Assembly: GCA_965204375.1 (NCBI GenBank)
Contig: OZ241986.1
Span: forward strand, 1,312,001-1,376,000
Source of the DNA: Candidatus Latescibacterota bacterium
GTDB lineage: Bacteria > Latescibacterota > UBA2968
DNA length: 64,000 nucleotides
Direction: 5' to 3'
In this document: positions 48,593-57,180 of the stretch, one piece after another
How the letters are laid out: every line of letters begins with the position of its first letter
Numbering within the stretch: position 1 is the first letter of the stretch
Translations under genes and position numbers: made by a program
The notes under the pieces: generated by a model
The model's input: only the letters and a program-made list of their open reading frames with translations
Databases searched by the model: none
Told to the model about the DNA's origin: nothing

Positions 48593-50614
48593 ATGACCAT
48601 GCAAGAACCTCTCGGGCAACTTGACTCTCCCGAAAGAACCAGACCCATGACGCGCGCCGTGCTTTTCGGCCTCGGTCTGGTCGTCGGTATCGATGTGCTG
48701 GCTATCCATGTGAAATACTTGCTCCCCCGCGGCCCAATGATGGCTTATAGCCATGTGCCAATGGTCGTGCTAATCGGTTTTGTCCTGATGCTCCTGGTCG
48801 GAGCAGTTGTTGCGCGTAGAACGAGGCAGCCACTGTCGCCCTCGGAATGGCATACGATTCTGGCGATGGGAATAGTCGGAGCAGCGGTCCTGTTCTACGG
48901 GTATTCCGGCTACCTCATTTCCTACATGGGCGCGCCGCACTACTTCGCCACGGGTGAAAACGAATGGGCCAATTATCTGCATCCCTACATTTCAGAGTGG
49001 CTGTTTCCCGAGAATGAAGAGCAAGCGGTGACCTGGTTCTGGGAGGGACTACCCAGAGGCGCACAATTGCCCTGGGGGAAGTGGATCTTACCCCTGTTCT
49101 GGTGGGGCGGATTGACCGTTGCTGCTTTTGTCCTCTATGCCTGCGTCACCACCATCTTCCGCAAACAGTGGATACACCACGAAAAAGTGGCCTTTCCGGC
49201 TATGGCTCCGCTGGTCGAAATGGCCTCCAACCCGGGAGATGGAAAGGGATTTCTCCCGGCATTCACGCGGAATACCCTCTTCTGGATTGGCTTCTGGATC
49301 GTCTTCGGGATGATCGCTTGGAACTGTGTCAATTACTTCATCCCTACCTTTCCCCAATTCCCCATCTACGCGCAAGGCAGTGCGGCACACCAGGGAGGGC
49401 GATGGATCTGGATCGATCGAAATTTTCCGCCTATCTACGGCATCCTCGATATTTTTACCATCTGCTTTTCCTATTTCGCAACTGTGGAAGTTCTGTTCAG
49501 CATCTGGTTTTTCGATTTACTCTTTATTCTCGAAGGGGGCCTGCTCAACCGGATCGGATTTGTGGCTACTTCGCCCTATTACTACTCGGGGGTCTGCTCA
49601 TGGCAGACGAAGGGAGCCTTCTTCTTTCTGGTGCTTTCTACCATCTGGGCGGCGCGTTCGCAGATCCGGGATGTGTTTTGGAAGGCACTTGACTCCCAGG
49701 CCCCGGTTGACGATAGGGACGAACCGCTCTCCTACCGCACGGCTGTTGCAGGGTTGGCTATCAGCCTGATCTACATCTGGGTCTGGTTGGTCCGGATCGG
49801 ATTCGATCCTTTCCAGGCAGTACTGCTGATCTTTGGGGCGATCTTCACCTATTTGGGACTGGCGAGAATCCTGTCTGATACGGGGTTGCCTTATGTCAAC
49901 GCCCCCGTTTGGGGAGGGTGGGGACTGGTAAGCCCCTTTCTGGATGGGGAATCCATCCACGCGAGCACCCGGGTGGCCGCACGGACCTCGGGCGTCCTGT
50001 TGTCCAATTTTAAGGGATCCTTCTTACCCGCTCTCAGTCAGGTCGGACGGGTGGCTGAGGGTGTGCAGGTGGAAAGCCGGCGACAGCTCACAGGCGCGAT
50101 TTTTCTGGCTTTTGTGACGAGTGTGGTCACATGCGTGTTGGTGACACTTTATCTGGGTTATCGACACGGCGCACTGAACTTCACAGGTTGGGTAGCTATC
50201 AGATCCGGCAATCCGCACTACGATCGCACCGCGAAATCCGTCAGATCCTTTCTGATGCAGGATACCGATGCACCGATCTTCATAGAACATCCCGACCAGT
50301 TCGCCTTTTTTGTGCTCGGCGCGCTGGCTACTGCATTGCTCTTCCTGCTCAGGCGTCGGTTCCCGTGGTGGCCTCTTCATCCGGTGGGTCTCACCATTTC
50401 GGGATCCTTCCTGGCTCGACGGACGAGCTTGACGATTCTCGTAGCCTGGCTGATCAGATGGATTGCCGTAAAGGTAGGGGGCGCATCCTCGTACCAGAAA
50501 TCCCGACCCCTATTTCTGGGCTTGCTCGTCGGCTATGTCCTGGGTGTCGTGTTATCGCTCTTCATTGACCTGATCTGGTTTCCCGAGCAGGGCCACATGG
50601 TCCACCGGCTTTAG
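48593..50614 (+). CDS. Multi-pass membrane protein (DUF6785/DUF6784, putative transporter)
   Basis: Many TM helices; RKQWIHHEKVAFP and FPWWPLHPVG motifs. Confidence 0.7.
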   Translation: MTMQEPLGQLDSPERTRPMTRAVLFGLGLVVGIDVLAIHVKYLLPRGPMMAYSHVPMVVLIGFVLMLLVGAVVARRTRQPLSPSEWHTILAMGIVGAAVLFYGYSGYLISYMGAPHYFATGENEWANYLHPYISEWLFPENEEQAVTWFWEGLPRGAQLPWGKWILPLFWWGGLTVAAFVLYACVTTIFRKQWIHHEKVAFPAMAPLVEMASNPGDGKGFLPAFTRNTLFWIGFWIVFGMIAWNCVNYFIPTFPQFPIYAQGSAAHQGGRWIWIDRNFPPIYGILDIFTICFSYFATVEVLFSIWFFDLLFILEGGLLNRIGFVATSPYYYSGVCSWQTKGAFFFLVLSTIWAARSQIRDVFWKALDSQAPVDDRDEPLSYRTAVAGLAISLIYIWVWLVRIGFDPFQAVLLIFGAIFTYLGLARILSDTGLPYVNAPVWGGWGLVSPFLDGESIHASTRVAARTSGVLLSNFKGSFLPALSQVGRVAEGVQVESRRQLTGAIFLAFVTSVVTCVLVTLYLGYRHGALNFTGWVAIRSGNPHYDRTAKSVRSFLMQDTDAPIFIEHPDQFAFFVLGALATALLFLLRRRFPWWPLHPVGLTISGSFLARRTSLTILVAWLIRWIAVKVGGASSYQKSRPLFLGLLVGYVLGVVLSLFIDLIWFPEQGHMVHRL

Positions 50615-50653: not shown

Positions 50654-52381
50654 CTAATCCAGCGTCCTCCGTATAGGCATGATTTCTCCTTCTTTGATCA
50701 CCAGTATTTTGTTGGAAGATATTTCTTCGATTCGATCCACTCTTCCCGATGGCCATCGGACCTCTACGAGGTCTATCCGTTTCCGCTTTCCCAATCCAAA
50801 GTGCAACCGCAGGTCGTTGGCCGATTGGTAGCTGGCCGCGCTGTGTAACTCCTTTACCTGCCGCAGATCGCCGGATATCACGGTTACCCGTGCCCCAATT
50901 CCGTCCCGATTGGAAAGGTTAGCGTTTTTTGTTACTTCCGGAACACTTCCTCCTCCAATTAGTCTCACCATCAGCCAGTTGTTCCGGTTGCCTCCTTCAT
51001 TCCGCAGCAGATCTGGTCGGTCGGCGACATTGGCCACCAGCAGATCGATATCGCCGTCGTTGTCGATATCCCCCGCAGCGGTTCCACGGCTCGATTTGAA
51101 GGTACTCAAACCAGGGCCAAAGCGTGCCGAAGCATCCGCGAATTGCCCGTTGCCCGTATTTTCGAAGAGCTTATTGCGCTGTTTGTAGGGAGACTCATCA
51201 GAGATAAGCTCGATGTTGTCCAGGACATGCCCGTTCGCGGCAAAGGCATCGGCATCTCCATCGTTGTCCGCGTCTAAGAAGACCAGCCCAAATGTCAGAT
51301 CATTCAGTGTTGAGGCCAGGCCTGCTGTCTTCGTCGCATCCGTAAATGTTTCATCTCCGTTGTTCAGGTAGAGGGTATTCGTTTCCGTTGATAGGTGTCC
51401 AATCAGGATATCCGAATAGCCGTTCCCATCTACGTCTGCAATATCTACTCCCATTCCCGCTTCGGCATGGCCCATCTCGTTGAATGACACGCCGGACAGC
51501 AGGGCGATTTCTTCAAATGTTCCGTCTCCCAGATTGGCAAAGAGGTAGTTCTCCATCGAATCGTTGGCCACATATATGTCCAGGTCCCCGTCGTTGTCGT
51601 AGTCGGTGCCCACCACGCCCAGTCCTCTCGCTCCCGGTCGGTAGATGCCGGACTCGCGGGTTACATCTGTAAAGGTTCCATCTCCTTCGTTCCGGTAGAG
51701 TACGTCCGGAACTCCCGGGTAGATATCCGGGTGGCAATAGCCCAGCGTAGTTGTCCCGGGTATTCTGCAGTCTCTATCGTTTTCCAGAGTACAATCGATG
51801 TAGTTGAGCAGATAGAGGTCCAGGTCTCCATCCCGGTCATAGTCGAGAAACATGGCGGTACTACCCCAGCGCTCATCTCCCACTCCGGCCCGGGTGGTCA
51901 CATCCGCAAAGGTTCCGTTGCCCTCATTGCGGTAAAGCACGTTGGGGCCGAAGTTGGTCACATAAAGATCCAGGTCTCCGTCGTTATTGTAATCTCCCAC
52001 CGCACATCCCAGACCGTAGCCCGGATTGCCCGTTGCTGATACTGCCGTCACATCCGTGAACCGCCATTCTCCGTCGTTTCTGTAAAGCCGGTTGGTCGGC
52101 GTCACCGTTGTCTGATAGCCCGGCAGCGGTGCGCCATTGATCAGGTAGATGTCCAGATATCCGTCGCCATCGTAATCGAATAGCCCACAGCCAGGGCCCA
52201 TTGTCTCTACTTCGTACTTCCTTCCACTGGCTCCGTTGACGTGGACGAAGTCAATGCCCGCCTGGGCAGATACCTCCACAAATTGCACCTCCTGGCACCA
52301 GACATCGAAGCCCCAGAAGAATAGAACGATTACGGTGCAAAGTTTCATCTTTTTGTATTTATCGAAGGCGTTCGGTTTCAT
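50654..52381 (-). CDS. CRTAC1-family FG-GAP/ASPIC-UnbV protein
   Basis: Repeated DYDNDGDLD; NRDGIGARV, SYQS, RLHFGLG, VRWPSG. Confidence 0.9.
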   Translation of the reverse strand: MKPNAFDKYKKMKLCTVIVLFFWGFDVWCQEVQFVEVSAQAGIDFVHVNGASGRKYEVETMGPGCGLFDYDGDGYLDIYLINGAPLPGYQTTVTPTNRLYRNDGEWRFTDVTAVSATGNPGYGLGCAVGDYNNDGDLDLYVTNFGPNVLYRNEGNGTFADVTTRAGVGDERWGSTAMFLDYDRDGDLDLYLLNYIDCTLENDRDCRIPGTTTLGYCHPDIYPGVPDVLYRNEGDGTFTDVTRESGIYRPGARGLGVVGTDYDNDGDLDIYVANDSMENYLFANLGDGTFEEIALLSGVSFNEMGHAEAGMGVDIADVDGNGYSDILIGHLSTETNTLYLNNGDETFTDATKTAGLASTLNDLTFGLVFLDADNDGDADAFAANGHVLDNIELISDESPYKQRNKLFENTGNGQFADASARFGPGLSTFKSSRGTAAGDIDNDGDIDLLVANVADRPDLLRNEGGNRNNWLMVRLIGGGSVPEVTKNANLSNRDGIGARVTVISGDLRQVKELHSAASYQSANDLRLHFGLGKRKRIDLVEVRWPSGRVDRIEEISSNKILVIKEGEIMPIRRTLD

Positions 52382-52468
52382 AAAGCGGTTGCCTTTAGGC
52401 CAAATAACAGATAGAATGAATAAAATAAATTTAGATTACAAATATATGCAAATCAAGTTTTCAATAGG
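52350..52468 (-). repeat. Promoter/5'-end cassette, copy 1 (41-bp identical core 52428-52468)
   Basis: aatttagattacaaatatatgcaaatcaagttttcaatagg recurs at 55826-55866; minus-strand TTGATT-N17-TAAATT. Confidence 0.85.
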
Positions 52469-52554
52469 TTTGCATCGGGTATGTATTGCGAGGCTCAAAC
52501 AAATGCTCGAGTGTTCCGATCAGTTTTTCACCTGAAGAAACACGGAGGTGTGAT

Positions 52555-53835
52555 ATGATGCTCAAAGAGAAAACAAATTCCGTTCCGGCATTGACGGACG
52601 AGACATTTGAGGCGTTGTTCGAAGCCTGCCGTCCCCAAAGGGAACGGTGGACAGATATCCCCTGGATCGGGGAACTCTGGGAGGGGCGGCAGAAGGCGGC
52701 GCGCGAGGAGAAACCACTGTTTATCTGGGCGATGAACGGCCATCCCCTGGGGTGTACGTGAAATAACGGGGTTACGGGCCGTGCGCTCGTTTTTTCAGAT
52801 CCGTGCGTGATCGAATTTTTGAACGAACGGTTTATCCCGGTGGCTGTGAACAATACCCGATTGCAGCGGCAAGCCGATGATGAGGGCCAGTTTTTGCGTT
52901 TGATCTCTTGGCAGGGAAGGTACGGGTATTCTTTTGACGAAGCGCAGGCCAGATTGGAGGATATCGATCACGGGCTGAACCATCAGGGTTTATATGTGGT
53001 GACGACAGAGGGAGAGGTGTTGGGCAGCCGCAACAGGCTGTTTCCGGGTGGCAAGCTCCCTGTACATGGTGTGGGTAGCGATCCAGACCAGTTCTTGTGG
53101 ATGTTGAGACGGGCGCTGGCGAATTGGGAGAATCGCAAGACCCAGCGCGAGGCATTGAAAATCGAAGATCTGACATATCGAGATCCCACATTTAGCTGGA
53201 CGGAGTATCCGGAAGACGGATTGGTTTTACACCTGGGCGTTCGGGACCTGCCCCGGCAGGTGGATACGCGGCCTTCGGGAATGAAGCGAGAGGCACATAA
53301 TCAGGATTACGTCTGGTTTCGACGGGAAGAGGTGCTGGCTATGGTTCCCCTCGATGCGGATGTGGGCGATGTCGTTTCCTTGTCCGAGGGGCTGGTCAGA
53401 CGGCTGGTGCGTTATCACCTGGCGGATTATGTCCGGGGGGAAACGTCTTCGTGGTCGTCTGAGGCGATCCGAGATGCGGCTATGGTATTGACGGTGACTG
53501 AGGAGACACCGGAATGGGTGAATCTGAGGCTTTCCGGGTCCGCGCAGTTGTTCGAGGAGGGGAGTTGGTACGAGGGCGCGTGTCGGGAGCGAGGGCTGGA
53601 TGCATCACTGTTGGGGTATCTGCGTTTTGATCGGCGAGTGGAACGGTTTGCGAGGTTCGATGTTGTGGCGGTGGGATCGCGGTGGGGCGGTACTGAGTAC
53701 AATGTACGACAGGACGATTTGGAGCCTGCGCCAATCGGGATTGCGATGACGATTGCCGGGCAAGAGGCGAGAGATCGCACAGCTCCGCATGCGTGCCAGA
53801 GTCGAGGTGGTCTGGAAAGGTATTTTAATGCGTGA
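52555..53835 (+). CDS. Probable selenoprotein, thioredoxin-like (SelN-like) fold, in-frame UGA at 52759-52761 (426 aa)
   Basis: Two track ORFs share one frame separated by a single TGA: WAMNGHPLGCT-U-NNGVTGRALVFSDPCVIEFLNERFIPV; RBS only at 52555; hairpin right after the TGA. Confidence 0.75.
52762..52791 (+). promoter_or_regulatory. Putative bacterial SECIS element
   Basis: aacggg/ctcgtt and g(t)tacg/cgtgc stems with a bulged U; G-led apical loop 16 nt after the UGA. Confidence 0.6.
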
Positions 53836-53877
53836 TTTGATAGTTGGGATATGTTTTGTCGCATTTTTGGAGAGACG

Positions 53878-54804
53878 ATGATACGGTGCGAGCGCAGAGC
53901 GGAACTCGAGATCGAAACACCGCATCTTTGTGCGGCGGTGCGGACCGAAGGTTATGTGAGTGGGATCAAGAGCAGATCGTTTGTAGATAAACGGACGGGC
54001 GCGACCGATCTGGGTTCGGGCCTGCACATTATGGACTTTTTGCTCGTGCCGGGGTGGGGAGATGCAGAACAAAATCGGATCTACGACGGGAATCTGCCCA
54101 AGCGCGTCGTGGAAGGTCCCCAGATCTGTACGCGGGCACGGCAGTTGGACTATGAGATTATCCAGGGTGAGGCGTTTCTGGCTGTGCGGCAGTGGTTTAC
54201 GTTTACAAGCGTGGTTGAAGGTTTCCAGGCCGGGTCGCGGTGGGAGCAGACGTTGCTATTTCTTCCGGATACGCGGTACGTGCTTTCGTGTGAGCGGATT
54301 TCTTGCGTCAATAGTGCAGATTGTTTGTTCTACCGGATCGACATGCCCGGCCACTTGCACCACAAGGATGGAGATTCTTTTACGCGGATTTATCTGAGCT
54401 ACCACGGGTATATAGAGCCTTCAGAGTTCATGACGGATTTCCCCCTGGACGAAGGATTCCTCTATCAGCGAAAAGAGGACGATATTCCCGATCGGATCAT
54501 CCGGGCATACGAACAACGGAAATCGGATGGCACATCCGTGTGGCTGGCGGGTATGACGCTGGATCCGGCGGATGTGTACGAGGCATGGTGCCATCAGCGG
54601 GGTTATGTCTGCTTTATCCAGGAACTGCACGGTCGGAAGGTAGCAGCAGGGGACGCGATCGGGGCCGCATACGTGGTGGGATATTTCGATTCGGTGGATG
54701 AGATGAATGCGGTTTACGACCAGTATCGGGGAGTGCGCTCAATTGCGGTAGATGATAACGGATACACTTTGCTGGACGAGGTGGAGAAAGCCGATGGGAT
54801 TTAG
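53878..54804 (+). CDS. Conserved hypothetical protein
   Basis: Long ORF with RBS and protein-like composition; motifs GYVSGI, LPKRVVEGPQIC, WCHQRGYVCFIQE; family not recognised. Confidence 0.7.
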   Translation: MIRCERRAELEIETPHLCAAVRTEGYVSGIKSRSFVDKRTGATDLGSGLHIMDFLLVPGWGDAEQNRIYDGNLPKRVVEGPQICTRARQLDYEIIQGEAFLAVRQWFTFTSVVEGFQAGSRWEQTLLFLPDTRYVLSCERISCVNSADCLFYRIDMPGHLHHKDGDSFTRIYLSYHGYIEPSEFMTDFPLDEGFLYQRKEDDIPDRIIRAYEQRKSDGTSVWLAGMTLDPADVYEAWCHQRGYVCFIQELHGRKVAAGDAIGAAYVVGYFDSVDEMNAVYDQYRGVRSIAVDDNGYTLLDEVEKADGI

Positions 54805-55950: not shown

Positions 55951-57180
55951 ATGAGGATTGTCGGGCTTGTGATTATCGCGTGCTTGTTGTGCGCTTTGAA
56001 AGCGAATGCCTACAGTGCGGATTTGGATCCAGATACCTTATCCGTAGAGGCTGGCTATGGTCGAATAGTGCTTCCGGGGACACAGGTTCAACTCAACGCC
56101 ACGCTTACCAATGGTCCGAGTGCCCGTGTTGTGTGGCGACAAGTGCAGGGGACGGCGGCGACGATCAGTTCAGCCAACGCGCTCCAGGCGACTGTTAGCG
56201 TTCCTGCCAATGTCAGTAGCGCGGAGACATTGTTATTTGAAGTGCGTGCCGAGATGGAATCTGGTCAACAAGCATCGGATACGGTTTGGATCGAGGTGTA
56301 TGTACCTGACCAGAATCCCGCCGACCTGACGCTTATGGCAGATTTTTCGCCGAAAGTTGGTTGGGAGTGCAACCAGGATCCAGTAGAGGTGCCAGAGGTT
56401 CAGACCCGCGTTCTGGAAAACACCATCGAATACACGACCAATGGCATTCCCGCCCATGCGACGGGAATGTTTCCCAATCGAGGAAATCCGAACATGATTT
56501 GGTCGGTACCTCAAACCTGGCACATTCCCCGCAATCCCGAAAAGACGGATACACCTACCGAAATGGCTGTATTTGGCATCACGCTCGAGGGCATCAAACT
56601 CGAACGCGACACTGCTGAGAGTTATCGCAACCAGCGGCAGTGGAATTACGAGGCGCTGACCCCGGGTATGGCGCGCCGGTTGAGCGGCAATGCGCGGTTT
56701 GAATGGCTGGGTACAGATTGCAATAACGCGCACGTTCAGCCGACGGGTATTTATCACTATCACGGCGTGCCGCACAGCTTGATAAATGAACTCACGAGTG
56801 GGATGGAGAGCGAGGAAATGGTATTGGTCGGGTATGCTGCCGACGGTTTTCCAGTCTATGTCGTCAGTGGACCCAATGCTCCTGAGGGGAGTTGGGAATT
56901 GCGCCAGGGTACGCGAGAAAGCGGACCCGGGGGAGAGTACGACGGCACGTTTCGGGAAGATTGGCAATTTGTCGAGGGTTCGGGCGATCTCGACCTATGC
57001 AATGGGCGGTTTGGGATTACGCCCGAGTTTCCGGAAGGGATATACCATTACTATCTTACCGATGACTACCCGTACATGCCCCGCTGTGTATGGGGGACGC
57101 CAGATCCTTCGTTCAGGCAACGTCGGGCTGGTGGCCCAGGCGGTCCAGGTTTTAGAAGGCGTCCACCACGTCGTTACTGA
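55951..57180 (+). CDS. YHYH-domain protein with PKD-like N-domain
   Basis: DCNNAHVQPTGIYHYHG, GYAADGFPVY, GDLDLCNGR, YHYY; signal peptide. Confidence 0.9.
   Translation: MRIVGLVIIACLLCALKANAYSADLDPDTLSVEAGYGRIVLPGTQVQLNATLTNGPSARVVWRQVQGTAATISSANALQATVSVPANVSSAETLLFEVRAEMESGQQASDTVWIEVYVPDQNPADLTLMADFSPKVGWECNQDPVEVPEVQTRVLENTIEYTTNGIPAHATGMFPNRGNPNMIWSVPQTWHIPRNPEKTDTPTEMAVFGITLEGIKLERDTAESYRNQRQWNYEALTPGMARRLSGNARFEWLGTDCNNAHVQPTGIYHYHGVPHSLINELTSGMESEEMVLVGYAADGFPVYVVSGPNAPEGSWELRQGTRESGPGGEYDGTFREDWQFVEGSGDLDLCNGRFGITPEFPEGIYHYYLTDDYPYMPRCVWGTPDPSFRQRRAGGPGGPGFRRRPPRRY

Follow-up and report, generated by a model that had tools for sequence, protein, structure and literature searches.

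The window analysed here is a stretch of 64,000 nucleotides from Candidatus Latescibacterota bacterium (assembly GCA_965204375.1, contig OZ241986.1, positions 1,312,001 to 1,376,000 of the forward strand), and all positions below are those of the window unless another contig is named. On its forward strand lie two adjacent open reading frames (ORFs) separated by a TGA, which we read with high confidence as one gene whose internal TGA encodes selenocysteine (Sec). The gene and the elements within and before it, including a hairpin of the selenocysteine insertion sequence (SECIS) type, are as follows.

52544..52548, forward strand: Shine-Dalgarno-like GGAGG, six bases 5' of the ATG at 52555, read directly from the sequence.
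52555..53835, forward strand: the whole gene, very probably that of a selenoprotein, with 426 codons plus a terminal TGA stop (53833-53835), translated with TGA as U.
52636..53142, forward strand: thioredoxin-fold domain of the Thioredoxin_7/DsbD-C/DsbH type, residues about 28-196, from AlphaFold and structure searches.
52759..52761, forward strand: in-frame TGA, read as selenocysteine codon 69 in the motif G-C-T-U-N-N-G from the conservation of its column, Cys-bearing homologues and an alignment to CxxC motifs.
52774..52790, forward strand: SECIS-type hairpin, with the 5' arm at 52774-52779, the loop at 52780-52784 (CGUGC) and the 3' arm at 52785-52790.
53143..53832, forward strand: C-terminal domain (residues 197-426), built largely of long antiparallel beta strands, without an assigned family.

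The two ORFs, at 52486-52761 and 52807-53835, share a common frame with one TGA at 52759-52761. From this TGA to the GTG at 52807, the point at which gene callers start the second ORF, there are 45 nucleotides, or 15 sense codons, and no ribosome-binding motif was found in the 26 bases 5' of that GTG. Read-through from the ATG at 52555 yields a product of 426 residues (...KPLFIWAMNGHPLGC-T-U-NNGVTGR...) with the active-site motif PLGC-T-U-NNG, in which the strand-forming KPLFIW occupies residues 53-58 and is followed by Cys67, Thr68 and Sec69. A preliminary description of this stretch, made from its letters alone, had claimed a single frame interrupted by one TGA and 15 sense codons, which direct reading of both ORFs confirmed, and had placed the TGA after KPLFIW and two residues past a Cys; both this placement and its claim that the second ORF lacks a ribosome-binding site agree with what we found.

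Conservation of the TGA across relatives is the first line of evidence that it is a sense codon. A six-frame search of 41 related genomes for the 426-residue protein detected the gene in 30 of them, and 31 of the 33 match rows contained exactly one TGA, down to 40% identity and with full-length matches included; the remaining two rows, partial copies of residues 198-426 and 368-413, do not extend to the TGA column. Such a pattern lies far outside what chance would give. All 19 relatives' loci that were cut out have the TGA in the identical column of the motif. The same holds for 80 of 80 loci from a scan of one genome per species, which gave 274 pattern matches, 267 of them confirmed and the best 80 kept. 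These 80 loci are labelled Latescibacterota, Gemmatimonadota, Poribacteria, Planctomycetota (mostly Pirellulaceae), Chloroflexota, Armatimonadota and, in one case, Bacillota. Cys is found two residues before Sec (U-2) in 77 of the 80, and the family motif reads GC[TV]U, or C-[TV]-U-N-N-G. Other stops, frameshifts or N were absent from all 41 genes checked (41/41), and purifying selection was visible on both sides of the TGA.

The SECIS-type hairpin that follows the TGA is under constraint at the RNA level. Its stem begins 12 nucleotides past the UGA and its loop 18 nucleotides past it. From 76 distinct 66-nucleotide segments around the TGA, aligned without gaps, RNAalifold gave a consensus helix of 6 base pairs with a loop of 5 nucleotides and compensatory changes at five of the six pairs. 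In a 7-pair version, 87.4% of cells were paired, against 79.0 ± 0.9% in shuffles (0/500 reaching the observed value) and 25-53% in slid controls, and cells with a double change numbered 59 against 23.9 in shuffles (0/500). The loop was CGUGC in 39 of the 76 rows, CGUGA in 21 and another sequence in 16. Codon bias within the hairpin is evidence that does not depend on the protein sequence: in the loop, 35 of 42 genes use CGT for the Arg codon at U+7, compared with 196 of 1437 Arg codons (13.6%) elsewhere in the same genes, and the Gly codon at U+6, which closes the stem, is GGC in 31 of 31 compared with 480 of 1241 (38.7%) elsewhere in the same genes.

The bacterial SECIS (bSECIS) model, as set out in a 2026 review (PMC13188914), has a loop of 3-9 nucleotides, a stem of 4-16 base pairs, a G within the first two loop positions followed by U, a spacing of 16-37 nucleotides and a minimum free energy (MFE) of at most -7.5 kcal/mol. 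With its 5-nucleotide loop, stem of 6-7 base pairs, G at loop position 2 followed by U and spacing of 18 nucleotides, the hairpin falls within the geometry of this model. The 45-nucleotide fold forced to keep the hairpin has an energy of -10.5 kcal/mol, and the median over the 76 sequences is -7.5. The preliminary description had noted a bulged hairpin with a G-led loop after the UGA; a hairpin is indeed present there, but the conserved one is a simple stem of 6-7 base pairs whose 5-nucleotide loop has G second, and not the longer bulged structure of the window's own MFE fold. That MFE hairpin, starting at the UGA with the loop GGC, was considered as the SECIS and rejected because it is not the conserved structure. 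Rfam, searched with the region 52400-53100 at E up to 10, gave no curated RNA family and two chance snoRNA-like matches far below threshold.

Genes for selenocysteine synthesis and insertion were detected elsewhere in the genome. We found selA at E 7e-150 (580 bits against TIGR00474) with selB adjoining it, both at about 2586847-2589722, and selD at E 5e-110 (G000:C1:5302781-5303906), outside the window. Because selD itself contains one in-frame TGA, its product is a Sec-containing selenophosphate synthetase; a tRNA-SeC with the anticodon tca lies about 100 bases downstream of it. The four genes that the preliminary description had named as a check, selA, selB, selC and selD, are thus all present. 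TGA terminates 1253 of 3000 ORFs of at least 300 codons, so the genome uses the standard code with TGA as an ordinary stop. selA occurs in 40 of the 41 relatives, including all 30 that bear the gene, and its presence does not discriminate among them since nearly all have it.

Homologues without a stop at this position offer a further view of the column. We examined 28 homologues called as intact ORFs, 22 of which align over the Sec column. Cys occupies the column in eight of the 22 (P0140, P0261, P0127, P0136, P0194, P0246, P0161 and P0201), with C-x-C in four of the eight, and Trp occurs in none. Either a conserved TGA or a conserved Cys had been proposed as a check on the column, and we found the former in 19/19 and 80/80 loci and the latter in these eight homologues. 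The combination that the preliminary description had set against its own proposal, a genome lacking Sec machinery together with homologues bearing Trp, Arg or other residues, was not what we observed, as the machinery is complete and the counts are 8/22 for Cys, 0/22 for Trp and 14/22 for D, S, A, R, G or N.

An AlphaFold model built with an alignment of 53 family members gave one confident two-domain structure for the whole protein, with a predicted local distance difference test (pLDDT) score of 92.8 and a predicted template modelling (pTM) score of 0.91. The thioredoxin-fold domain has a strand at residues 55-60, a loop containing C67-T68-U69 and a helix at 70-77, so that the TGA codon stands just before the helix. 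The best structure match was 3f9u (Z 12.7, root-mean-square deviation 3.0 over 125 residues; Foldseek E 3e-4), followed by 2lst (Z 11.2), AGR3 (3ph9, Z 10.9), DsbH (2ju5, Z 10.1), 3ira (Z 9.9) and 7tkv (Z 9.6), and UAS-type domains were also among the fold matches (2dlx, Z 8.8; 2ec4, Z 8.6). A sequence-profile search of the PDB returned only 3f9u (E 0.021) and 3ira (E 0.049). In its alignments Sec69 falls on the first Cys of the CxxC motifs (CVNC in 3f9u, CHWC in 3ira) and Gly72 on the second; the E-values are weak, and the same entries are at the top of the fold searches. This alignment with the first CxxC cysteine of both structures puts Sec69 in the attacking position, and the only thiol near it is Cys67.

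The C-terminal domain, of 230 residues, was also modelled confidently when folded alone (pLDDT 90.0, pTM 0.85). Its best VIA-align scores (Z 6.6) were to outer-membrane beta-barrels and designed barrels and lie within the tool's stated background, and a Foldseek search with the full-length model matched nothing convincingly beyond the thioredoxin domain. The absence of a clear solved relative does not show that the fold is new.

We read the gene as encoding a 426-residue C-x-U selenoprotein because its TGA is conserved by column, a SECIS-type hairpin follows it, the genome has the Sec machinery, homologues have Cys in its place and a thioredoxin fold spans it. These data establish one gene, a conserved UGA, a SECIS-type hairpin constrained as RNA, the Sec machinery and the fold, and they make it very probable that the two adjacent frames form a real selenoprotein gene in which the internal TGA encodes selenocysteine. 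The central proposal of the preliminary description is therefore supported: gene callers have split a 426-residue CxU selenoprotein whose bacterial family is poorly described. Metatranscriptome contigs from three libraries of two studies, 90-95% alike to the window, also bridge the TGA (X11, 52614-52979; X22, 52535-52887; X23, 52525-53835), and no change at 52759-52761 was found among the 40 differences listed in these contigs, with 139 more beyond those listed.

Several points weigh against this reading. The evidence for Sec in the protein comes from sequences and models, and it is from these that we infer selenium insertion itself. The scan of species representatives used as its seed the peptide immediately before the TGA, which favours loci with close N-terminal likeness. 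In 14 of the 22 intact homologues the Sec column is occupied by a residue that is not redox-active (D, S, A, R, G or N), and therefore the scaffold works also without a redox centre; three of the 80 Sec forms have no Cys at U-2, so the Cys67-Sec69 couple is not obligatory across the family. As for the hairpin, the shuffle counts make it look more significant than it is, because the sequences are related to one another and the compensatory changes fall within coding sequence. The hairpin alone has an energy of -7.0 kcal/mol and narrowly misses the -7.5 limit of the published model, and the MFE structure of the window's 45 nucleotides (-13.6) is a different one from the conserved hairpin. The folding energy is ordinary compared with shuffles (z-score 0.07 for 60 nucleotides), and the conserved helix is part of the row's own MFE structure in only 32 of 76 rows. 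Finally, the RNA-library contigs, which are suggestive of an expressed gene, may stem from DNA and prove no transcription, strand or level.

Translation could also continue through the TGA with an ordinary residue, such as Trp or Cys, inserted by near-cognate decoding or in response to a local recoding signal. The hairpin could in principle stimulate such read-through, and selenium is, as said, a matter of inference, but the complete Sec pathway, the agreement of the hairpin with the bSECIS geometry down to the G-U of its loop, the occurrence of Cys and never Trp in the intact homologues, and the location of the residue at the catalytic position of a thioredoxin fold make this very unlikely.

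If the TGA were instead a true stop, the locus would hold two genes, one for a peptide of 68-91 residues and one for a protein of 342 residues starting at GTG 52807. This is how gene callers treat it, and the terminal stop of the gene is also a TGA. Public records follow the same pattern: of the 120 homologues listed, not one goes beyond 83% coverage of the query, their lengths are 246-368 residues with a single exception, and they are named only 'hypothetical protein'. Altogether 1785 proteins match at E up to 0.001, and among the 150 listed, the match starts at query residue 73-92 in at least 45. However, the 15 codons from the TGA to the GTG are among the best conserved of the protein (NNGV.GR), the GTG is not preceded by a ribosome-binding motif, the predicted thioredoxin fold needs residues before and after the TGA, the reading frame of intact homologues continues across the column, where they have Cys or another residue, and frame and column were kept in 99 of the 99 loci examined. 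Two separate genes are thus most improbable, and on the selenoprotein reading almost every public record of the family is N-terminally truncated and lacks the catalytic residue. A pseudogene or an assembly or sequencing error at the TGA, with which a single window and the partial copy (residues 198-426) in one genome (G010) would be compatible, is refuted for practical purposes, because relatives' genomes and species-representative loci share the TGA, identically in independent assemblies of several phyla, and no other stops or frameshifts interrupt the 41 genes, which are under purifying selection on both sides of it.

Taken as a selenoprotein gene, the locus suggests a mechanism. The UGA at 52759-52761 would be read as selenocysteine during translation, with the hairpin at 52774-52790, within the coding sequence, recruiting SelB that carries Sec-tRNA(Sec), and the pathway would be supplied by the selA, selB, selD and tRNA-Sec of the genome. 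In the folded protein, Sec69 would stand in place of the attacking, first cysteine of CxxC and Gly72 in place of the second, and the resolving partner is likely to be Cys67, which stands two residues upstream; the two would thus form a Cys67-Sec69 selenenylsulfide as redox couple. Probably the substrate or a partner is held by the C-terminal beta domain of 230 residues. The most likely activity would be thiol/selenol-based oxidoreduction, and a redox function through the Cys67-Sec69 couple is the somewhat favoured mechanism.

The protein is of a known kind, the thioredoxin-fold bacterial selenoproteins, and is unusual in its C-x-U-x-x-G site and its unassigned second domain. Pfam gave no family at E up to 1 for the 426-residue protein, and none at E up to 0.01 for any of the 53 members (53/53). 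The preliminary description had suggested comparison with Thioredoxin_7; the likeness holds at the level of the fold and did not extend to a match with the Pfam sequence model. The protein shares with Thioredoxin_7, DsbD-C and DsbH domains the N-terminal fold with an active-site residue at the start of the first helix, and, in the 3f9u and 3ira alignments, a stretch of the type R...F.D..V...LNE.F[IV] after the active site. Whereas those domains have C-x-x-C, the site here is C-x-U-x-x-G (C67-T68-U69-N-N-G72), with Gly at the place of the second Cys and an extra Cys upstream, and the domain is joined to an unrelated beta domain. The 426-residue protein does not carry the motif C-x-x-C, U-x-x-C or C-x-x-U.

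Among NCBIfam models the sole one touched was NF041383, with residues 34-103 aligned to profile positions 4-69 at E 3e-4. The score of 20.5 bits lies far below the cut-off of 275, and only four of the 53 members match this model at E up to 0.01. NF041383 is the VPGUxxT family thioredoxin-like (seleno)protein, type 2, which corresponds to 'hypothetical protein OS_HP5' in Table 1 of the review (PMC13188914). Both are thioredoxin-like bacterial selenoproteins with Sec near the N-terminus of a longer protein, but NF041383 has the motif VPGU and the present family LGC[TV]U, and the match spans only about 65 of 287 profile positions. Table 1 of PMC13188914 gives 119 prokaryotic selenoprotein families with model identifiers, and neither the 426-residue protein nor the 53 members matched any model identified in that table. 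The family is likewise not shown in the compared passages of the Global Ocean Sampling (GOS) paper or the BSepDB paper, whose supplements were outside the comparison. In the literature on selenoproteins of Latescibacterota, Planctomycetes, Poribacteria, groundwater metagenome-assembled genomes (MAGs) and sponge symbionts we found no description of the family; the groundwater-MAG study cited by the review is not part of that literature set.

A resemblance to eukaryotic SelN (SELENON) had also been suggested in the preliminary description. As described in PMC12839072, SelN has the motif SCUG with Cys adjacent to Sec, is an endoplasmic reticulum membrane protein with an anchor and an EF-hand, and carries its Sec near the C-terminus. 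The two proteins are alike in having Sec next to a Cys in a thioredoxin-like domain. The protein studied here differs in its C-x-U near the N-terminus, in the absence of a membrane segment or EF-hand and in its other second domain, and SCUG is not present. Membership of the SelN family is thus unsupported: the motif is GCTU against SCUG, the architecture differs, and the likeness is confined to a fold of the Thioredoxin_7/DsbH/UAS type. No SelN-named protein occurred among the 120 homologues listed or the nine from a search with the thioredoxin domain only; the latter search returned close relatives alone and is uninformative on distant kin. The UAS-type fold matches 2dlx and 2ec4 bear on this comparison, since UAS domains are presumably linked with SelN.

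Several of the intact homologues are fusions: five stand C-terminal to Ser/Thr kinase domains and one behind an extracytoplasmic function (ECF) sigma factor, and another has a pyrroloquinoline quinone (PQQ)-type beta-propeller behind the selenoprotein-like part. Whole-length homologues in fusions are P0124, P0140, P0145, P0178, P0261, P0260 and P0138, most of them without a redox residue. The fusion homologues suggest that the scaffold also serves as a sensor module. A quick tree of the 53 members, which is unrooted, with the careful search unfinished and the non-Sec rows on long branches, places the non-Sec forms inside two Sec-bearing groups, and at least two changes of state are required by its starred branches; we draw no conclusion on their direction.

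The family is large, and it is apparently uncatalogued and mis-annotated in a systematic way. We consider the chances evenly balanced for a fuller reading, that of an uncatalogued two-domain selenoprotein family in at least six phyla, with the Sec form as the rule, a C-x-U-x-x-G site and a C-terminal domain without a clear solved relative, whose redox-dead paralogues have been taken into Ser/Thr kinases and an ECF sigma-factor fusion as C-terminal modules that probably face outward. If this is true, the scaffold would act as an enzyme and also as a module that senses a ligand or the redox state. Annotation loses selenoproteins systematically, since it takes UGA for a stop, and members of the present family come from sponge, coral, marine and soil bacteria of several phyla. 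With a profile of the family many records would be corrected, and the prokaryotic selenoproteome, counted at 119 families in Table 1 of PMC13188914, would gain one more. With Sec, Cys and redox-dead forms on one scaffold, in cytoplasmic and exported as well as free-standing and kinase-fused versions, the family provides a natural series for the role of Sec in the attacking position.

The location of the protein appears to vary across the family. Members of the window's clade, labelled Latescibacterota or Gemmatimonadota, have no hydrophobic N-terminus, and clear signal peptides were detected in planctomycete, many poribacterial and several other members. The 426-residue protein probably acts in the cytoplasm, since no signal peptide is found in the window's organism, and planctomycete and some poribacterial members are predicted to be exported. 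DNA near-identical or 90-95% similar to 52400-54000 was found in sponge and coral metagenomes of several studies and in three metatranscriptome libraries, and it seems that the organism, or close relatives of it, are sponge- and coral-associated.

The neighbouring genes with recognised domains are the following.

48593-50614, forward strand: DUF6785/DUF6784 membrane protein.
50654-52381, reverse strand: FG-GAP repeat/ASPIC-UnbV protein.
55951-57180, forward strand: YHYH-domain protein with a PKD-like domain.

These neighbours, together with an ORF of 317 residues and one of 269 residues, recur only within the genus. Clustering of 900 flanking ORFs from the 80 loci showed that the commonest neighbour is a short-chain dehydrogenase, present at 18 of 80 loci. 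We rejected it as a partner because 12 of the 18 come from a single clade, the others differ in where they lie and how they are oriented, and the protein family is very common.

The next ORF after the selenoprotein gene, at 53851-54804 (317 residues, no Pfam family), is in frame with it, with the terminal TGA and five codons between them. It recurs only in five loci of the same genus, and in one of these (L040) the offset is not a multiple of three; we read the shared frame as a coincidence and not as a second read-through.

Two genomes of the same genus (G006 and G020) carry a second copy of the selenoprotein gene, 67-68% identical and about 20 kb from the first, with the TGA at the same column, and at loci L043 and L044 this second copy is followed by a DUF6785 homologue. 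Another genome of the genus holds the C-terminal half only (L022, G010:C1:4609604-4610290; residues 198-426, 86% identical), which looks like a truncated remnant. A DNA contig from one run (X4) skips from 52790 to 53722 (side 30, depth 10.6) and probably derives from another organism or a relative.

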